A stretch of DNA of 56,002 nucleotides from Dehalococcoidia bacterium (GCA_022824765.1 JAJDZG010000161.1:1-56002), one strand, 5' to 3'. Counted from the first letter of the stretch, positions 6,218 to 17,189 are shown. Translations and numbers: made by a program. The notes: generated from the letters alone by a model not told the origin.

Positions 6218-7123
6218 CTAGGCGCGCTCGACTGGCTCGTCCGCCTCTCGTCGCAGCTGCACGACGGAGCTGCCGATCACCAGCAGCACCACGCCGACGA
6301 CCACTTCGTAGCCGAGTGATTCGCCCAGGATCAGGCCCGAGAAGATCACTCCGAAGATTGGCGCAAACAGCATGGTCGCCGCCACTTGCGATGGGAAGTA
6401 GCGCTGGACCAGGTATGTGTTGCCGATGAATCCGAATCCGCCGATTACGACTCCCTGCCAGAGCAGCGCGATGATGAACTCGGTCGTCCAGGGAATGCCG
6501 CCGGATTCGAAGAGCAGTCCGCCGATTCCGAAGGCGACCACCGCGGAGACTGACTGGGTCATGAGCAGCCGCGCCGGATGGATGCTCTGGGAGAAGTGCG
6601 ACAGGTAGATTTGTCGCGAGGCGAGCAAGGCGGCAGACGAGACGGTCATCAGGTCGCCCCAGACTGATGCGCCGGGCGCGCTGAAGCCTCCGACGAAGAC
6701 GACGACGACTCCGGCGTAGGCGACGACCAGGCCCGCGGTGCGCCGCATCGACATGTGGTCGCCGGGCACGAAGAAGTGTCCGAGGACCGCCGTCCAGAGT
6801 GGAAAGGAGAAAATCAGCACTGACGCGTGGCCGGAGCTGGTGTTGTCGGCGCCGACATACATCAGCAAGGTCTGGACGACGAACAGCACGCCCAGGCCGA
6901 TCAACGGCCGATACTCGCGCGGCAGCGGACGCAGCGATGTCTTGGTGGCGATGGCGTAGCCGATCACCACTACGCCTCCGAGCGCCATTCGGATGGCGCT
7001 GAGCCGGAGCGGACCGAGGCCTTCTTCGAGTCCCGCCTTGATCGCCACAGGTTGCCCGCCCCAGAGCAGGACGAGCAGCATCGCGAACGCCCCAGCGCGC
7101 AGGGTCAGCGGTCGCCGGCCCAT
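6218..7123 (-). CDS. DMT superfamily (EamA-type) transporter
   Basis: 301 aa from the ATG at 7123 (MGRRPLTLRAGAFAMLLVLLWGG...), with about ten hydrophobic spans in a duplicated EamA-like layout. The 438-aa track ORF extends into the neighbouring gene and is not credible. Confidence 0.85.
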   Translation of the reverse strand: MGRRPLTLRAGAFAMLLVLLWGGQPVAIKAGLEEGLGPLRLSAIRMALGGVVVIGYAIATKTSLRPLPREYRPLIGLGVLFVVQTLLMYVGADNTSSGHASVLIFSFPLWTAVLGHFFVPGDHMSMRRTAGLVVAYAGVVVVFVGGFSAPGASVWGDLMTVSSAALLASRQIYLSHFSQSIHPARLLMTQSVSAVVAFGIGGLLFESGGIPWTTEFIIALLWQGVVIGGFGFIGNTYLVQRYFPSQVAATMLFAPIFGVIFSGLILGESLGYEVVVGVVLLVIGSSVVQLRREADEPVERA

Positions 7124-7230
7124 CGGGTCGGCGTTGCTGGATGGTGACGCGCCACGTTGGTCAGACAGGTCACGCTGGTCAGGCTGGTTGGATTGCTGTG
7201 ATGCCACTACCTGAAGATACGGCCAGCGGT

Positions 7231-8310
7231 CTACGTCATCGTCCAGGCGCGCACGGCGGTGATTGGTGCGAGGTTGGTGCGCAGCAACGTCCAACGCTCG
7301 CCGCCGTCGTTGGACGCGAACAGCTGCCCGCCGCTCGATCCCATGTACAGGCCCAGCGGGTCTGCGCCGTCCTGACCCAGCGCCTGCCGATAGATTGCCT
7401 GGTGGAATCCCGCCTGAGGCAGGCCGTCCGACAGTTCGCGGAAGGTCGCGCCGGCATCGGATGTGCGGAATACCTTCAGCGCCCCGCCGCGAGGCATCCG
7501 AGCCTGGTCGAAGTCGAGCGGGACGTAGTAGCACACGTCGGGATCGTTGGGGTCGATTGCCGAGGCGAAGCCGAACTCGCCGGGCAGGTCGGGACCCACC
7601 TCAATCCAGTGCTCGCCGTCGTCGTCGGAGCGATATTGGCCGAAGTGTCCCTGCTGCCACAGTCGGCCGCGCTGGCGTGGATGTGCGTGCAAGGAGTGGA
7701 TGCATGGTGTGACATCTTGCATCTCGGGCGGCATGTTGTCAGCGCGGATGCCGCCGTTGCGCTGATGCCAGGAGTCGCCGCCGTCGTAGGAGACATAGGT
7801 GCCTGTCGCTGAGCCTGCCGCCACGATTCGGTCAGGGTCTGTCTGATCGACGCCCAGGTGGTGAAACATCAGCCCCGCCGCGCCTGGTTCCCATCGGCCG
7901 TTGGTCGGGTGGTTGGTCAGCGCTGATAGCTCTTGCCAGCTTGCTCCATCGTCCGAAGACTTGAACAGCGCGGCGGGCATCGTGCCCGCATAGAGCACAC
8001 CGTCCTCGACGCCTGGCTCGATCGTCCACACACCCTGCAGCGAGCGCTCGCCGTCGCTGAACGCTGGCGTTGAGGCCTCCGTCCAGGAAGCGCCATCGTC
8101 GTCCGAGCGGTGCAGACGCGCACCCCATTGCCAGTGATTGGCGGCACACCAGATTGTCCCGTTGCGCGGGTTGCGCACGGCGTAGTCAATGATCCAACCG
8201 CCAAACAGCAACTCCGACCAGTCCCAGTCGCGGCGTCCGCCGTTGCTGCGGGCGATTAGCAAGCCTTTGCGCGTGCTGACCAGCAGGCCGGCCTCAGTCG
8301 TATTGGTCAC
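7231..8310 (-). CDS. BNR/Asp-box repeat beta-propeller protein (sialidase-fold, no signal peptide)
   Basis: Six Asp-box-like motifs: SDDDGASW twice, SYDGGDSW, SDDDGEHW, TSDAGATF and SNDGGERW. The GTG start overlaps the stop of the upstream gene (GTGA). Confidence 0.8.
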   Translation of the reverse strand: MTNTTEAGLLVSTRKGLLIARSNGGRRDWDWSELLFGGWIIDYAVRNPRNGTIWCAANHWQWGARLHRSDDDGASWTEASTPAFSDGERSLQGVWTIEPGVEDGVLYAGTMPAALFKSSDDGASWQELSALTNHPTNGRWEPGAAGLMFHHLGVDQTDPDRIVAAGSATGTYVSYDGGDSWHQRNGGIRADNMPPEMQDVTPCIHSLHAHPRQRGRLWQQGHFGQYRSDDDGEHWIEVGPDLPGEFGFASAIDPNDPDVCYYVPLDFDQARMPRGGALKVFRTSDAGATFRELSDGLPQAGFHQAIYRQALGQDGADPLGLYMGSSGGQLFASNDGGERWTLLRTNLAPITAVRAWTMT

Positions 8311-10637: not shown

Positions 10638-10889
10638 ATGAGCGAACAGCAGATTTCCATCGAGGTCGTCTACTGCGCCGATTGCGGCTATTGGCCGCGC
10701 ACGTCGTGGATGATTGGCGAGCTGATGACGGACATCCAGCACTTGGTGTCGGAGGTTACGCTCGTGCCCGATACCAAGGGTTTGTTCGAGTGGAAAGTGA
10801 ACGGAGAGCTGGTGTTCAGCAAAGCGGCGATGGGTCGCTTCCCGGAGATGGACGAGTTGCGGGAGCTTGTGTATGGGTTCCTCGAGTAA
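10638..10889 (+). CDS. Rdx (SelW/SelT/SelH-like) thioredoxin-fold protein, CxxC form
   Basis: 83 aa with [20 protein letters not shown] near the N-terminus. It starts 3 nt after the LLM gene. Confidence 0.8.
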
Positions 10890-11828
10890 TCGGCTCTACT
10901 TCGGCGACAACCTGAGCGTGCTGTCGGAACAACAACTCAAACGGTACAAATATGAGGCTGACAATAGTACATACAAGGCCGAGAATCTGACGGCGCCCCG
11001 TTACTCCCCTACCAGAACCGTCGAATGGCGCCGAGTATATCCGGGAGCCCACAGACAATGGCGATTTTCCATCGACGAACTAGAGCGTCTGTACGCCGAG
11101 GGGTGCATTCTTCTCAGGCGCGATGGTCTGCCTCGAAAGGACGGCCTGCAAGAGTACCTGTTCGAAGCGGACGCTCCGGCATTGCAAGACATCTGGACCG
11201 ACGTCGGCTTTGGTCGGACCTCCGACGAGCGTCTGGGATTTCAAACCCAGAAGCCTGAGGCGCTGCTCGAACGCGTTATCAATGCCAGCAGCAATGAGGG
11301 CGATGTCGGGCTCGATCCCTTCTGCGGCTGTGGCACAGCGGTTGCCGTCGCCGAGCGTCTGAACAGAAGTTGGATCGGCATCGATATCACCCACCTCGCA
11401 GTGTCGCTGATGCGCGGCCGGCGACTGGCAAGAAGGCGGCGGATTCAGGGATCGACGGCAACATCAACTTCTTTGACGACAGCTCGGGCAAGGCGAAGCG
11501 GATCATCGTGCAGGTCAAGAGCGGGCACGTCAACCGCGGCATGATCGCGACGCTCAAGGGTGGCATGGATCGCGAGGACGCTGCCGTCGGCATCTTTATC
11601 ACGCTGCAGGAACCGACCGAACCGATGCGGCAGGAGGCGACAGGGGCGGGCTTCTACGAACCGGAGAGTCTGCCCGGTAACCGCTATCCGAAGGTCCAGA
11701 TCCTGACGATCGAGCAGTTGCTGGACGGGGAGCAGCCAGAGTATCCGCGTTTCGCAGCGCCGCAAACGTTCCGCAAGGCGCCCCGCCGTCGGCGCCGTGA
11801 GGGAGCCCAGCGTTCGCTTGACGATTGA
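10867..11828 (+). pseudogene. decayed N6/N4 DNA methyltransferase with C-terminal Mrr-like nuclease-fold domain (internal deletions plus frameshift)
   Basis: It keeps the N-terminal [12 protein letters not shown] and the motif I region ([44 protein letters not shown]). The DPPF/Y catalytic block that normally follows the N-terminus is absent. The C-terminal module ([13 protein letters not shown] ... [10 protein letters not shown] ... AAVGIFITLQEPT ... YPKVQILTIEQLL) sits in a different frame (ORF 11370..11828). Confidence 0.75.
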
Positions 11829-11931
11829 TTCCTCGCGCCTGAGAGTGGAACTCATTTCGCTCGATAGCATCGCTGCGCCCGTGAAGTGATTCGCTAGCCT
11901 GTGGGTGAGCGAAAATGACTGGGGGGACCCG

Positions 11932-12474
11932 ATGCCGGAGACGATTGAGATTCTGAGTCCGCTTGCGCATGTGGCGGTACATGAGGCGACGGCGGCGGCG
12001 CGGCCGATGTCGTTGGAGGGCCTGCGGCCGGGCATCCTTGAGAATCGCAAGGCCAACGCTCGACTGCTGATGGAGACGATGGTCGAACGGCTCGGAGAGC
12101 GGCATCAACTCGGTGAGCTCGTTGTCGGCAGTAAGCCGGTGGGCGGGCCGCCCTCGGACTCGACTATTGATGCGCTGCGCAACGGGGCCGATTTCTTGCT
12201 GATCGGCAGCTGCGATTGAGGGAGCTGCACGACGTGGAGTGTCCACGCCTCGGTCTTGTTTGAAGAGTTGGGAATTCCCACGGTCACGGTCGGTACGTCG
12301 GCCTTCACCGACCTGTTGCAGCTGGAAGCGGAGCAGCGCGGGCTGCCCGAGCTCGATCGTCTGATCGTGCCGCATCCGCTGGGTGGGCTGCGCCCGGAGC
12401 GGGTGCGCGAGCGCGTCGATGACGGCGTCGTCAGTCGGCTTGAGGCGGCGCTGCTTGGGCAGGCGAGCTCGTGA
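11932..12474 (+). CDS. candidate UGSC-motif selenoprotein (in-frame UGA at 12217-12219 read as Sec); otherwise a nonsense-disrupted gene
   Basis: Track ORFs 11905..12219 and 12256..12474 share one frame and are separated by a single TGA. Read-through gives ...DFLLIGSCD-U-GSCTTWSVHASVLFEELGIPTVTV... A hairpin starts 11 nt after the UGA. ATG 11932 is preceded by GGGGGG. Confidence 0.6.
12230..12252 (+). promoter_or_regulatory. putative bacterial SECIS hairpin
   Basis: CGA-CGUGGA / loop GUG / UCCACG-(cc bulge)-UCG. The 6-bp perfect upper stem is 12233-12238 with 12242-12247. The apical loop begins 19 nt after the UGA and starts with G. Confidence 0.5.
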
Positions 12475-13529
12475 CCGCGCCTCGTGGACGCGAGGCGGAG
12501 CGATTCTCGTTGCCGTCGGACCCGTTTGAGTTTTCGCAGGAGTGCCAGCGGCGCGGTTGGTCTGACGGTCTGCCGCTGATTCCGCCGACGGCTGATCGTG
12601 TGGAGGCGATGCTCGCTGCGGGAGATCGGGATGCGATGGATGTGCTGGGCGTGCTGTCGCCACGTCAGGGTGAGGCGACGGTGCAAGCGGTAGCGATCAA
12701 CGCGGTGATGGCGGGCTGCCGGCCGCAGCAGTTCCCGGTGGTGTTAGCCGCGGTGGAAGCGATCTCGCAGCCGCCGCTTAATCTCGATGGGATCAACGCC
12801 ACCACGCATCCTTGCGCGGTGTTCGTGCTGGCGTCGGGGCCGGCTGCTCGGACGGCGGGAGTTCACGGCGGATCTGGCTGTTTCGGCCCAACGTTTCCGT
12901 CGAACGCGACGATCGGTCGCGCGGTGCGTCTGGTGCAGCTCAACATTGCCGGCGCGACGCCGGGTCGGGGCGATCGGGCGACGCAGGGCACGCCGGCCAA
13001 GTTTGCGTTCTGCGCGACCGAGCGCGAGGACGCCTCGCCCTGGCCGCCGTTCCAGACCACGCGCGGTCTCAACGCGGAGGACAGCTGCGTGACGACGTGG
13101 GCGTGTGAGGGTCCGCACAACATCCAGGATCACGGCAGCAACACCGCTACCGGCATCCTGCAGACGGTTGCCGGCGCGATGGGGCAGGCCGGTTCCAACA
13201 ACATCCTCGGCAAGGGCGAGCCGCTGCTGGCGTTTGGTCCGGAGCACGCCGAGACGGTGGCGTCGGAGGGCTGGACTCGGGAGTCAGTGCAGGAGTATCT
13301 GTGGGAACACGCGCGCTATCCGGCGAGCAAGCTCAGCCCTGAATTCCTCGAGTCGGTCAACATCCGCATGGCGGGCGGCATCCTCGATCCGCACGACCCG
13401 GACGAGTGGCTGCCAATCTCCGACAAGCCCGACGAGATTCACATTATCGTCGCCGGCGGACCGGGCAAGCACAGTTGTTGGATGCCAACTTTTGGCGGCA
13501 TGACGCGTCCGGTGACGGTGCAGTTGTGA
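12471..13529 (+). CDS. conserved-looking Cys-rich hypothetical protein, family not recognised
   Basis: 352-aa ORF whose GTG start overlaps the upstream stop (GTGA). It looks soluble. Motifs: GWSDGLPLIPPT, NAVMAGCRP, GGSGCFGP, WACEGPHNIQDHG, GKHSCWMPTFGG. Confidence 0.75.
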   Translation: MTAPRGREAERFSLPSDPFEFSQECQRRGWSDGLPLIPPTADRVEAMLAAGDRDAMDVLGVLSPRQGEATVQAVAINAVMAGCRPQQFPVVLAAVEAISQPPLNLDGINATTHPCAVFVLASGPAARTAGVHGGSGCFGPTFPSNATIGRAVRLVQLNIAGATPGRGDRATQGTPAKFAFCATEREDASPWPPFQTTRGLNAEDSCVTTWACEGPHNIQDHGSNTATGILQTVAGAMGQAGSNNILGKGEPLLAFGPEHAETVASEGWTRESVQEYLWEHARYPASKLSPEFLESVNIRMAGGILDPHDPDEWLPISDKPDEIHIIVAGGPGKHSCWMPTFGGMTRPVTVQL

Positions 13530-15253
13530 CAGATCGGAGAATCCGTCCCGCATGTCTTGGCGATGCGAGCCTTGCGATACATCACGGAAGTCTCGGATGC
13601 TTGGCCTGGCGCATCGGCTTGACTGCCGCGCTGCTGGCAATGTTCGGCGTCCTGAGCGTTGTGATCGCCCAAGATGGCAACGTTGCCACTGCCGAGGTCA
13701 GAATCAACGCTCTCCGTCTCGATGACGGTCGCACCGAGTTCGGTCTGCAACAGCGGCAAACGGGCGGAGAGTGGAGCGATCGACTGCTGCCACGCGGTCG
13801 ATATTTCCCTGCTGACAGCAGTGTTGACCGTTGGTTGAACAGCAGTCCGTTGACGCTTGAAGGCCCCTTACAGGGGGTCGTGGTCAGGATATCTGCACGA
13901 CTCTTGGGCGATGGACGGATCGAGTTTGCGCTCCAGCGACTGAGCGCTCGCGGCCAATGGGGTGAACGGGAGCTGCCTCGTTCTCGATACTCTCCGGCGA
14001 ATCCCAGTGTCGGGCGCTGGATATCAAGTTCGGCGCTCGTGACTCGCGGCGACGGCAACAACGATGAGACCGCGATGCGCCCTGACCCCGAAAACGAAAC
14101 TCCAGCCGAGCCGACGTGCCGAATAGCAGATCATGCTGATCGCGTGGCCGCCGCGACTTTTCAGGTACAGACCGACGACTCGACGGGGACGGCCTTCTAC
14201 ATCGGGCAAAATGAGTGGATCACCAATCACCATGTGGTTGAAGCACAGCGTCAAGTGAACCTGGCTCGCGGAGATTTCACAATCATTGCTCAAGTGATCG
14301 GCAGCTTGCCCGACTACGATCTCGCGCTCCTGCGTGCGCCGGCGCCGCACTCAGTCACGCCGCTGGCGTTTGTCGCCGCCCAGCCAACCCTTGGCGCGAA
14401 CGTCTCGGTGATTGGATTTCCGTCTGGAGTTTCCGGTACTCCATCGCTGACCCGAGGAGCGATATCAAAGCATGCGCCATTCACGCAGTTCAGCGGATTC
14501 ACTGGCCCGGGCGTGATGGTGCAGATCGATGCCGCGCTCAATCCCGGCAACTCGGGCGGTCCGATGGTCAACGATTGCGGCGAGGTGGTGGGCGTTGCGA
14601 CGCAGAAGCTGTTCTCCACGGCTGACGGCCGCGATGTCGAGGGGATCGGGTACGGAGTCTCCGCAGAAACGATCGCGTCTCAGTTGACCGCATTGAGGAC
14701 GACTCCCCATGTCACGACACGCGGGCCAGGGTCTATCGCGACGGTGGGGCCGGGGAGTAGTGAGCGTGCTCGGTATGGGGTGGAGTCCAGCGGCGCGTTC
14801 GGATCGGTTGGGACATGGTTTCACATCGCTGGCGACGATGGATGGTCGTCCGCTCTTGCACTAGATGGCTATAGCAACGATTCACTCTACGACGAAGGCC
14901 GTTTGGTCGTGGCATGCTTCCATGACACCAACAGGATAGGCACATATGTTTCAGCCAGAGATTCGTGGACAGGAAATGAGGCGTTGCTGAGAACTTCGGA
15001 GGACAGTTACGGCGGCTTCTTTCAGGATGACGTTCTGTTGGAGGATGAGGCGTTCTATTGGCCAACATGGTTTGACTATGCCGGAGTTGCTGGTACCAAA
15101 GCCGTGGACTTCGTGCGATTTGCCATGAGCGGCGCAGCAGACGAGGTTCGATTCCTGCTGTCGCGGTGGGGCGAAGACATAGTCGTGTCCTTCGATCTGG
15201 CGGGGATGTTCGAGACGCCTGTCCAGCACCTTCTTGAACTCTGCCTGGACTGA
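13526..15253 (+). CDS. membrane-anchored or secreted trypsin-fold (S1, HtrA-like core) serine protease with N-terminal tandem repeats and an unknown C-terminal domain
   Basis: The catalytic triad appears in order: ITNHHVV, DYDLALLR, NPGNSGGP. A hydrophobic segment LAWRIGLTAALLAMFGVLSVVIA lies near the N-terminus. The start is uncertain: GTG 13526 (GTGA overlap), TTG 13601 or ATG 13640. Confidence 0.8.
   Translation: MTDRRIRPACLGDASLAIHHGSLGCLAWRIGLTAALLAMFGVLSVVIAQDGNVATAEVRINALRLDDGRTEFGLQQRQTGGEWSDRLLPRGRYFPADSSVDRWLNSSPLTLEGPLQGVVVRISARLLGDGRIEFALQRLSARGQWGERELPRSRYSPANPSVGRWISSSALVTRGDGNNDETAMRPDPENETPAEPTCRIADHADRVAAATFQVQTDDSTGTAFYIGQNEWITNHHVVEAQRQVNLARGDFTIIAQVIGSLPDYDLALLRAPAPHSVTPLAFVAAQPTLGANVSVIGFPSGVSGTPSLTRGAISKHAPFTQFSGFTGPGVMVQIDAALNPGNSGGPMVNDCGEVVGVATQKLFSTADGRDVEGIGYGVSAETIASQLTALRTTPHVTTRGPGSIATVGPGSSERARYGVESSGAFGSVGTWFHIAGDDGWSSALALDGYSNDSLYDEGRLVVACFHDTNRIGTYVSARDSWTGNEALLRTSEDSYGGFFQDDVLLEDEAFYWPTWFDYAGVAGTKAVDFVRFAMSGAADEVRFLLSRWGEDIVVSFDLAGMFETPVQHLLELCLD
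13694..14038 (+). repeat. two tandem copies of a ~53-aa protein repeat inside the protease gene
   Basis: EVRINALRLDDGRTEFGLQQRQTGGEWSDRLLPRGRYFPADSSVDRWLNSSPL versus VVRISARLLGDGRIEFALQRLSARGQWGERELPRSRYSPANPSVGRWISSSAL. Confidence 0.8.
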
Positions 15254-15331
15254 GCCAGACGGCTGGAGCGCGGCTTCGGTTGCCCGTTCGACCTAAGTCC
15301 CAGTGGCTTTGCGGAGTGCGACCCGAGGGAA

Positions 15332-15351
15332 GAACAGACTCCGGTCTGTTC
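15332..15351. terminator. hairpin between convergent genes
   Basis: GAACAGAC-tccg-GTCTGTTC, an 8-bp stem. There is no clear U-tract, and it touches the stop codon of the minus-strand gene. Confidence 0.35.
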
Positions 15352-16282
15352 AAACGCCAAACCCTGCCGAGCGCTTGCCTTCGTGGAACTCGGCGAGCTT
15401 GGTGAAGAGGTCGTGGAAGATTGGATCGCGGCGGACGTAGTGCGCCTCGACGAATGGTGCGTGCGCGGCGTCGTCTGGTTGCGGTGTCCATTGCATGTCG
15501 TTGGATAGTGTTGGCCGGATCAGGCTGCGGCGCGGAACCCATGACTCATCGACCAGGAAGCCGGTCGCAGACAGGTCCCAGATCTCCTTCGAACGGCCCG
15601 CAAACTGGTCGTCGTGGTCGCGGAAGATGCCGGCGAGGTACGCGCCGATCTCTCCGTGTGGTCGGACGTAGGCGTCGAGCTCGGCGGTAGTCGCGAGCAG
15701 GTGCGAGGCGGCGCCGTAGCAGGGGATGTGGACCAGCGGTGCGCCTGAGTCGAACACGATCCGCGCGGCAAGTGGGTCCTGGTAGAGGTTGAATTCGCGC
15801 GCGTCGGAGGCGTGCTGCGCCTGTCCGCCGAGCCAGACGATGCAGATGCGCCGGGCGATCTCGGGCGCCTCGATGAGCGCCGAGGCGACGTTGGTGAGCG
15901 CGCCGATTGCCACCACCCATAGCGGTCCCTGCCTTGCCTCTAGCGCTCGTTCGATCAGGTCGCTCGATGCGGCATTTGAGACCGCCTGAGCGTCGTCGGA
16001 GAGGAACCGATCCGCTCCGCGCAGCACTCTGCCTGCGTCGTCGACGCCGACGCGATCCAGCAGGCGATGGATTTCCGCCTCCGACTCGGCGACGCCGTCG
16101 GCGGGATCGAGTCCTGCCCTCGTGAAGAGCGTGGCGTAGATCGCCTCGAGGGCCAGACGGTCTTGCGAGAGCAGCGCGTGGACGACCGCGAACTGGTCGT
16201 CGATCTCGTTGGCCGTGTCGGTGTCGAGGACCATCGGAATGCGCTCAGGCGCGGGCGGGGGTGTCAGGATGTGGTGGTGCAT
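15350..16282 (-). CDS. nucleoside hydrolase (IUNH family)
   Basis: The ATG at 16282 gives MHHHILTPPPAPERIPMVLDTDTANEIDDQFAV, which contains the DxDxxxDD fingerprint. The longer track ORF overlaps the divergent gene. Confidence 0.9.
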   Translation of the reverse strand: MHHHILTPPPAPERIPMVLDTDTANEIDDQFAVVHALLSQDRLALEAIYATLFTRAGLDPADGVAESEAEIHRLLDRVGVDDAGRVLRGADRFLSDDAQAVSNAASSDLIERALEARQGPLWVVAIGALTNVASALIEAPEIARRICIVWLGGQAQHASDAREFNLYQDPLAARIVFDSGAPLVHIPCYGAASHLLATTAELDAYVRPHGEIGAYLAGIFRDHDDQFAGRSKEIWDLSATGFLVDESWVPRRSLIRPTLSNDMQWTPQPDDAAHAPFVEAHYVRRDPIFHDLFTKLAEFHEGKRSAGFGV

Positions 16283-16352
16283 GAGGGCAGGGTAGTCGCG
16301 CGGGGGACGGTTAGTCTGTGAGGGCGGGACGACTGCGACGAGAGGATTTGCG

Positions 16353-17189
16353 ATGAAGTACGGCGTGTTTATTTTCGCGACAGACAAGGCGATGGACCCA
16401 GCGAAGCTCGCGGCGGCCGCCGAGGAGCGCGGATTCGAGTCGTTCTGGGTACCGGAGCACGTGCACATGCCGGTCGACCGCGCGACGCCGTTCCCGCGCA
16501 CTGAAGACGGCTCGCTGCCCGAGGAGTACTACCGCATCCACGATCCGTTCGTGGCGTTGGGCGCGGCGGCCGGGGCGACTTCCGAGATTCGGCTGGGGAC
16601 CAGCATCTGCCTGGTGACCGAGCACGAGCCGATTGCGCTGGCCAAGCAGATTGCGTCGCTCGACTTCATTTCAGGTGGGCGCTTCGAGTTCGGCATCGGC
16701 GCGGGATGGCTGCCGGAGGAGATGGAGCCGCTGGGGGTGCGCTTCCAGGATCGCTGGAAGGTCACGACGCAGCGGATTGAGGCGATGAAGGTGATGTGGA
16801 CGGAGGACGAGGCGGAGTATCACTCCGAGTTTGTCGAGATACCCAAGACACACGTGATCCCGAAGCCGGTCCAGGATCCACATCCGCCGATTCTGATCGG
16901 CGCTGGCAGCAAATGGGCGCGTCAGCGAGTGGTCGACTGGGCGGATGGCTGGCTGCCGAACATTCCCGCGCCGGGCTTTGTCGAGCGGGCGATCCAGGAC
17001 ATTCAGTCGCGGGCGCAGGAGGCGGGACGCGACTTCGACTCGATCTCGATCAACGTGTTTCCGGCCATCGAGGACGCGCTGCCGGAGTACGAGCGGATCG
17101 GCGTTGACCGCGTGGTGTTCGGCCTGCCGCACGCGGGCGAGGACATCGTGATGCCGGAACTCGACCGTCTGGCCAAGCTGATTCGCTAG
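16353..17189 (+). CDS. LLM-class F420-dependent oxidoreductase
   Basis: MKYGVFIFATDKAMDPAKLAAAAEERGFESFWVPEHVHMPV is typical of the F420-dependent LLM subfamily. A GAGGA RBS is present. Confidence 0.9.
   Translation: MKYGVFIFATDKAMDPAKLAAAAEERGFESFWVPEHVHMPVDRATPFPRTEDGSLPEEYYRIHDPFVALGAAAGATSEIRLGTSICLVTEHEPIALAKQIASLDFISGGRFEFGIGAGWLPEEMEPLGVRFQDRWKVTTQRIEAMKVMWTEDEAEYHSEFVEIPKTHVIPKPVQDPHPPILIGAGSKWARQRVVDWADGWLPNIPAPGFVERAIQDIQSRAQEAGRDFDSISINVFPAIEDALPEYERIGVDRVVFGLPHAGEDIVMPELDRLAKLIR

Follow-up and report, generated by a model that had tools for sequence, protein, structure and literature searches.

We analyzed a compact block of genes at positions 11829-15253 of a 56,002-nucleotide stretch of DNA from a Dehalococcoidia bacterium (GCA_022824765.1, JAJDZG010000161.1:1-56002; this whole stretch is hereafter called the window, and all coordinates refer to it). 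An earlier note, written from the sequence alone, had described the block as three tightly coupled plus-strand genes, encoding a candidate selenoprotein, a Cys-rich protein of 352 amino acids and an extracytoplasmic serine protease. An open reading frame (ORF) scan of the interval bore out the presence of three plus-strand genes: a UGSC-family selenoprotein gene (11932-12474), a gene for the 352-residue protein, here labeled MID (12471-13529), and a gene for an S1C-type serine protease that is secreted or membrane-anchored (about 13601-15253). Positions 11829-11904, at the head of the block, are non-coding, and a scan for promoters and terminators yielded nothing informative. As set out below, the first two genes form a conserved and functionally coupled unit, whereas the protease is an unrelated insertion.

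The first gene supports the suspicion of a selenoprotein. Its frame, extending from 11905 to 12474, is broken solely by a TGA at 12217-12219, which lies inside the stretch LLIGSCD-TGA-GSCTTWS and supplies the selenocysteine (Sec) codon of the motif SCD-U-GSC-TTWS. An alternative start exists at GTG 11905, but the ATG at 11932, which is preceded by a G-rich stretch, is more likely. With Cys put at the TGA, the protein matches PF24696 with an E-value of 5.8e-41 and 140.9 bits against a cut-off of 25—making it a family member at the Pfam level—and it reaches 106.3 bits with the model NF041046 ('UGSC family (seleno)protein'), under the equivalog cut-off of 125. Two samples of loci were used to follow the codon across relatives: a genome set of 80 related loci retrieved with a MID profile, 79 of which include upstream DNA, and a distant metagenome set of 80 loci, in which MID is 35-49% identical to a divergent MID. 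The homologous column holds TGA in 78 out of 78 genome loci; among 57 distant metagenome loci, it holds TGA in 52 and Cys in five. Full-length Cys-form homologs likewise place their Cys in the Sec column, as 'GDCGSCT'. No tRNA-Sec gene was found in the window.

A selenocysteine insertion sequence (SECIS) downstream of this codon is supported by frozen synonymous sites and by compensatory base changes. Counting from the UGA, codons +5 to +9 (ACG, TGG, AGT, GTC and CAC) display zero synonymous variation in a set of 79 unique sequences and codons +3, +4 and +10 only 0.17-0.44 bits, against 1-1.9 bits at the four- and six-fold degenerate codons flanking the frozen stretch. The SECIS-like hairpin proposed from this comparative analysis (12231-12249, plus strand) begins 11 nt after the UGA and consists of the arms GACGUGG and CCACGCC around the loop AGUGU. 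In 115 unique sequences, 85% of the cells at its eight proposed pairs are canonical, compared with 24-53% when the 3' partner is shifted, and double-sided compensatory changes (e.g., GC to AU, GC to CG and GC to UA) occur at four of the eight pairs. The fold of this region as a single sequence is not significant (z = -0.35), and no Rfam match to the hairpin was found. Sec decoding at this position is established by these observations, and, judged by its sequence, the first gene encodes a true selenoprotein of the UxxC type that belongs to the UGSC family.

Several departures from the common form of the selenoprotein were encountered among the relatives. Three metagenome loci (L127, L137 and L152) carry variants with U-G-S-S-T-P-W, which have no resolving Cys, and a different downstream hairpin, CCGCG-CGUGA-CGCGG, replaces the common SECIS stem in all three—suggesting a divergent UGSC subfamily with its own SECIS. 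At nine loci where MID precedes UGSC (L104, L107, L111, L115, L129, L132, L138, L157 and L158), the selenoprotein motif reads U-G-S-C-x-x-C-S. A natural full-length fusion of UGSC and MID, protein P0104 (locus L086, 8001-9698), carries Leu in place of Sec (TANLGSCT) and is located on a contig rich in transposase genes. This copy may be decaying, or it may reflect an artefact of sequencing or assembly.

The second gene encodes a protein that the earlier note could not place in any family, and our searches led to the same outcome. No match to MID was obtained in Pfam (single sequence and 36 close members, with E up to 1), in NCBIfam (the window protein and 31 distant, diverse members), in PADLOC or among the PDB sequences, whether by sequence or by profile. 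The family is nonetheless large: a word-indexed search retrieved more than 7,900 homologs, every one of them annotated as 'hypothetical', and an exhaustive profile search delineated 6,945 clusters at 50% identity, with 1,938 at E ≤ 1e-30. The AlphaFold2 (AF2) model of MID had a predicted local distance difference test (pLDDT) score of 88.9 and a predicted template modeling (pTM) score of 0.90. When this model was compared with the PDB using Foldseek, the best matches all had template modeling (TM) scores <0.3. These weak matches were to class I fumarate hydratase (E 3.6e-4, TM 0.24), cyanuric acid hydrolases, and PurM/SelD-like and FtsZ domains, and none was accepted as a homolog. On the strength of the predicted model, MID has a fold without a solved relative in the PDB, and the check for a characterized enzyme family that the earlier note had proposed turned up none.

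The cysteines of MID, to which that note had drawn attention, number eight rather than seven (residues 25, 83, 115, 137, 181, 206, 212 and 336). Only C83, in the motif 'NAVMAGC', is kept throughout the family at large; nearer relatives alone share C137 and C181, and the remaining ones are lineage-specific. A three-Cys Fe-S site of the kind present in fumarate hydratase was considered and dropped because C137 and C181 are not conserved family-wide. Further conserved motifs include DGLPxxPPT, ATTHP, ANATIGRA, PAK, the Lys residue K177, AENE..SPW, PEHA and VAGGxGxHS.

The pairing of UGSC with MID is established by its recurrence across both samples, in line with the co-localization that the gene-neighborhood check proposed in the earlier note was meant to detect. 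Of the 79 genome loci with upstream DNA, 78 have UGSC as the gene just before MID. The UGSC stop and the MID start overlap by 4 nt in the window (GTGA, 12471-12474), as had been noted before, and a GTGA or ATGA overlap is kept in approximately 19 of the 25 closest relatives; an in-frame UGSC-MID fusion is present in about 12 genome loci. UGSC adjoins MID on the same strand in 60 of the 80 distant metagenome loci as well: it precedes MID in 45 of these and follows it in 14, and in one further locus the sole copy stands off at 1.3 kb downstream. Fused proteins show either domain order—the representative proteins comprise many UGSC-MID fusions of 530-570 aa together with the reverse-order MID-UGSC fusions P0142 and P0145, both truncated by the gene caller exactly at the Sec position. 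Moreover, look-ups of neighborhoods anchored on UGSC found MID next door every time. AF2 modeling of the natural fusion P0104 gave a pTM of 0.88, so the UGSC and MID domains are confidently placed relative to each other. We conclude that UGSC and MID are functionally coupled and act as one unit, their pairing being obligate from the UGSC side and near-obligate overall. The pair is also syntenic among relatives and of native composition, which argues against the suggestion that it is accessory or horizontally acquired.

We also examined which other genes accompany the pair, clustering the neighborhood ORFs with a gene filter based on G+C content at third codon positions (GC3) that guards against the long antisense ORFs of high-GC DNA. 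A recurrent third gene, missed by the earlier note, encodes a small SelW-like redox protein of the Rdx family. In the window this gene (10638-10889, plus strand) begins 4 nt past the stop of an upstream luciferase-like monooxygenase gene, and its product, a Cys form with the motif Y-C-A-D-C, is a clear family member (PF10262, E 3.6e-18, 66 bits versus 22.6; TIGR02174, 60.5 bits versus 34.2). Rdx lies just upstream of UGSC in 55 out of 80 genome loci, almost all of them from Chloroflexota, and two relatives (L026 and L027) carry a CxxU form. In the window it is split off from UGSC by an insertion holding methyltransferase and endonuclease sequences. Occasional links to other genes are likewise observed. 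Protein P0139 is a MID::Pyr_redox_2 fusion in which a flavoprotein resembling thioredoxin reductase (TrxR) lies C-terminal to MID; the gene order is TrxR-UGSC-MID in L089 and TrxR-UGSC(Cys)-DUF6282-MID in L087. Among the 80 genome loci, 22 have a DUF6282 gene, usually in a convergent arrangement; the gene belongs to the same operon in L087, L117 and L098, with Amidohydro_2 occupying that position in L084.

The remaining neighbors are generic catabolic genes (SDR, ECH, ACAD, thiolase-like/DUF35, CoA transferases, AKR and PALP), from which nothing was deduced because such genes abound in the genomes concerned and frequently run convergently. One contig of 54.9 kb (NODE_4598; L168 and L169) has a UGSC-MID fusion amid at least seven paralogs of family III CoA-transferases (PF02515). 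CoA-transferase, ECH and ACAD genes often adjoin the pair at other loci as well, which may reflect no more than their genomic abundance.

Drawing from these observations, the reading that we favor, with somewhat better than even confidence, is that the conserved unit constitutes a two-component selenol/thiol oxidoreductase made of UGSC and MID, to which the protease is unrelated. MID is the larger module, with a fold new to the PDB, the family-wide C83 and several polar residues that do not vary. Both modules are made together from overlapping genes, or as one polypeptide in many lineages, with either domain order. According to this model, MID would bind the substrate, perhaps covalently via C83, and the selenol of UGSC would attack an oxidized or covalent intermediate held on MID. 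A selenenyl-sulfide could then form with the resolving Cys of U-x-x-C and be re-reduced at the expense of NAD(P)H by a TrxR-like flavoprotein, with Rdx or thioredoxin as alternative recyclers; in Chloroflexota, the adjacent SelW-like Rdx probably takes part in this step. We infer this electron path and the reductase chemistry. A bolder version of the proposal, which we put forward only tentatively and hold to be less probable than not, is that UGSC-MID could represent a new class of Se-dependent two-module reductase, with a new catalytic fold and a small organic substrate, fed by electron donors of the TrxR or Rdx type and common among aerobic bacteria of soils, fresh waters and the sea. It would then resemble the Stickland reductases in its action, but in organisms that do not ferment.

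A number of observations weigh against an oxidoreductase of this kind. The searches brought out no substrate, cofactor or chemistry for the pair, and MID has no solved or annotated relative in Pfam, NCBIfam or the PDB. The proposed electron donors are not uniformly linked to the pair: Rdx was found in 0 of the 80 distant metagenome loci, which makes its linkage lineage-specific, and the TrxR and DUF6282 links are sporadic, with two or three loci each. The ECH, ACAD, CoA transferase and SDR neighbors give no specific functional hint. Finally, UGSC is missing within 6 kb of MID in a subfamily represented by eight loci with full flanks (L095, L096, L099, L101, L105, L121, L125 and L131), and some fused UGSC domains are devoid of the redox motif.

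The last two points bring in the main rival explanation, i.e., that MID is a non-redox, Cys-dependent enzyme, such as a hydrolase, a lyase or an isomerase, and that UGSC serves as its dedicated guardian or regulator, keeping catalytic C83 reduced or resetting it in aerobic cells without passing electrons to a substrate. The cysteine of NAVMAGC is retained in the UGSC-less subfamily, and C83 persists together with the other MID invariants both there and in fusions that have no U/C-x-x-C; MID chemistry may therefore not need Sec. The hosts would fit such a role too, being for the most part aerobes from Chloroflexota, Rokubacteria and lineages of soil or sea. Against it stand the near-obligate pairing, the frequent fusion and the strong preference for Sec over Cys (78/78 and 52/57, as detailed above). 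In addition, a continuous flow of electrons is suggested by the direct fusion of the pair, or its linkage in operons, to TrxR-like flavoproteins that depend on NAD(P)H. Taking both sides into account, we regard the guardian role as rather unlikely and retain the two-component oxidoreductase as the preferred reading.

Another explanation would assign the pair a general antioxidant or thiol-disulfide function—as a peroxidase, a protein-disulfide reductase or a sulfoxide reductase—in which MID acts as a scaffold or sensor and not as an enzyme with a specific substrate. Features typical of antioxidant selenoproteins are indeed present, namely the UxxC motif, a SelW-like Rdx next to the pair and the links to TrxR. 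Structure prediction points elsewhere: the UGSC part of the P0104 model was matched by Foldseek to flavodoxin, azoreductase, SsuE-type proteins and lumazine synthase, all weakly (E about 1e-3), and no thioredoxin fold occurred among its top 50 matches. UGSC may thus be pictured as a small flavodoxin-like, and not thioredoxin-like, α/β redox module, with Sec-Gly-Ser-Cys predicted to follow a β-strand at the start of a helix. Moreover, MID is large and highly conserved, and its many invariant polar residues suggest a defined pocket for a small molecule. Several paralogous pairs also coexist in one genome, e.g., three loci on contig CBDCPB010000002.1 and three in assembly adc01b0e, a pattern more in keeping with diversified substrates than with a housekeeping role as an antioxidant. 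We consider this explanation improbable.

The third gene of the block encodes a protease, and the trypsin fold attributed to it in the earlier note was confirmed: the protein matches PF13365 (Trypsin_2; E 1e-24) and has the H, D and S motifs. It also carries an N-terminal hydrophobic segment. The NCBIfam models for DegP, DegQ, DegS and HtrA give 40-79 bits against cut-offs of 400-750, and no PDZ domain was found in Pfam and NCBIfam scans; the sequence thus indicates an S1C-like protease that is not a canonical HtrA. Its N-terminal part (window 13700-14040) contains a tandem pair of repeats, each some 55 aa long, VRINALRLDDGRTEFGLQQR...RWLNSSPL and VVRISARLLGDGRIEFALQR...RWISSSAL, without a Pfam match, and its C-terminal domain of about 170 aa has no family match either. 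Longer homologs of 770-890 aa may hold more copies of the repeat. This protein is related to S1C proteases of Chloroflexota, which have numerous paralogs, vary in their accessory domains and are located elsewhere in their genomes.

Comparison with related loci revealed how this gene came to stand next to MID. Among public loci, L001 is the closest, its MID being 97% identical to that of the window. The window aligns collinearly with L001, L002 and L004 up to approximately 13524 and again from approximately 15346-15377, leaving an insertion of 1.8 kb (about 13530-15345) that holds the protease and is absent from L001 and from other relatives. In these three relatives, a convergent gene resembling nucleoside hydrolases comes within about 40-60 nt after MID—this distance, from the MID stop, being about 44 nt in L001—and the same gene is the native downstream neighbor of MID in most close relatives. 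Composition sets the gene apart as well. The GC3 value of the protease is 0.65, falling to 0.49 in its C-terminal third, compared with 0.78-0.79 for UGSC and MID and 0.81-0.85 for flanking native genes. The lower G+C content that had been ascribed to the 3' half of the block is consequently real, but it is limited to the protease gene.

These results bear directly on the idea, put forward in the earlier note, that a co-translated selenoprotein, a Cys-rich protein and an extracytoplasmic protease act jointly in an accessory, horizontally acquired block. The three genes do share a strand and are tightly packed, the 3' part is lower in G+C, and a protease start at GTG 13526 would create a second 4-nt overlap, with MID, at 13526-13529. 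This GTG exists in the protease frame; a start there is unproven because the boundary of the insertion falls at about 13524-13548, the database gene call begins at ATG 13640 (P0283, 537 aa) and a start at TTG 13601 yields a canonical signal peptide, AWRIGLTAALLAMFGVLSVVIA followed by QD. Against a joint system, none of the 80 related genome loci, L001 among them, yielded a protease homolog, and trypsin-like genes occur near MID in only two of the 167 loci covered by our census, both of them ordinary HtrA-type. One of these two is a UGSC-less locus (L096), where the protease gene is divergently upstream; this neighbor is probably coincidental. Furthermore, UGSC and MID are of the cytoplasmic type whereas the protease has a signal peptide, its family comprises ordinary multi-paralog proteases, and foreign composition is confined to it. 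A three-gene system is not supported because the protease is absent from 80/80 loci, differs in composition and sits in the 1.8-kb insertion, and we deem it highly improbable. The protease is an unrelated, strain-specific insertion with foreign codon composition, outside the module formed by UGSC and MID; as a recurrent third member, it was not seen.

A second insertion (about 10889-11880) parts Rdx from UGSC in the window. It comprises the C-terminal part of a decayed DNA methyltransferase followed by an out-of-frame Mrr-type endonuclease domain (10867-11828, plus strand), the former matching PF01555 over profile positions 96-213 of 221 and the latter PF04471/PF22722, with additional PADLOC matches to MTase_II. 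In L004, which is free of this insertion, the gap between Rdx and UGSC is about 27 nt, and L001 carries a different insert of 1.6 kb between the two genes. A homologous methyltransferase/endonuclease remnant lies downstream of MID in L008 (about 7100-8050) and L019 (about 7090-8020), at the site that the protease occupies in the window. The flanks thus differ among strains, and the surroundings of UGSC-MID act as a hot spot for the insertion of foreign genes; no direct or inverted repeats bounding either insertion were found. On the other side of the block, the nucleoside-hydrolase-like gene (15350-16501, minus strand; PF01156, E 9.5e-25) has a longest ORF that reaches 16501 and overlaps the start of a plus-strand luciferase-like gene (16353-17189) by about 150 nt. 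Its true start is probably further in, near the Met of 'MHHHILTPP'.

For the window itself, this analysis removes the protease as a false lead and leaves a locus that is ordinary for its lineage. The broader significance lies in the selenoprotein, which belongs to one of the most abundant selenoprotein families in ocean and freshwater metagenomes. Pairing with one specific partner turns this orphan into a defined two-component enzyme that is open to expression and assay, and that partner has thousands of members, neither a Pfam or NCBIfam model nor a solved relative, and in some cases a fused TrxR-like flavoprotein. Should the proposed new class of reductase prove true, a function would finally be assigned to a very abundant family of environmental selenoproteins.

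The closest known counterpart of the pair is found in the UGSC literature. In the Global Ocean Sampling (GOS) survey of marine metagenomes, proteins containing UGSC emerged as a major family of selenoproteins without known function, with 255 Sec forms versus 21 Cys forms and a higher frequency in non-marine waters (PMC2398784). The family had been called 'of unknown function' in 2007 (PMC1976440), and UGSC is still listed among the uncharacterized selenoproteins in a 2026 review (PMC13188914). The window protein agrees with these accounts in its U-G-S-C motif, in-frame UGA, downstream SECIS and strong Pfam match, and it differs from the family model in scoring under the NF041046 equivalog cut-off. 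A further point of agreement is the company of a conserved domain that contains Cys and lacks a known function, to which UGSC is fused in other loci. A 'UGSC/Unknown_1' fusion was shown by Zhang and Gladyshev (PLoS Genet 2008, Fig. S1A; PMC2398784), which qualifies the statement in the earlier note that no described system pairs a UxxC redox selenoprotein with such a partner, a statement that otherwise holds in part. MID is probably this 'Unknown_1' domain. The same paper suggested a thioredoxin-like fold for UGSC (PMC2398784), whereas our model matches flavodoxin-like folds. The near-obligate pairing, the two gene orders, the links to Rdx, TrxR and DUF6282, the flavodoxin-like fold of UGSC and a partner without relatives were not found in the UGSC literature examined.

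Two other families are represented among the neighbors. The Rdx gene of the window resembles SelW, SelT and SelH in its CxxC motif, which is CxxU in two relatives, and departs from them in an association with UGSC that is confined to the sampled Chloroflexota loci; nowhere in the literature searched did we find Rdx described as sharing an operon with UGSC. The protease resembles HtrA/DegP proteins of family S1C in its Trypsin_2 domain, which bears the His, Asp and Ser motifs, and in its N-terminal signal or anchor, and differs from them in having two repeats of about 55 aa at its N-terminus and an unassigned C-terminal domain instead of PDZ.

From a mechanistic perspective, UGSC-MID invites comparison with the Stickland reductases GrdB and PrdB (PF07355). 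By descent the systems appear to be distinct: PF07355 gave no match to six UGSC proteins at E up to 10, neither GrdB nor PrdB was among the Foldseek matches of the UGSC part, and no match to the pyruvoyl proproteins PrdA and GrdE was obtained for MID, which, like 66 of its relatives, has no Pfam or NCBIfam match at all. The hosts of UGSC-MID are, moreover, mainly aerobic and not amino-acid-fermenting anaerobes. The motif of GrdB is UxxCxxC, which is resembled by the U-G-S-C-x-x-C of the loci where MID precedes UGSC. The likeness would be one of mechanism only and not of family membership: in those reductases, which act on small substrates, a selenoprotein subunit with UxxC cooperates with a second subunit that binds the substrate, and a thioredoxin system provides the electrons. 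PrdB is given with a UxxC motif (PMC2398784).

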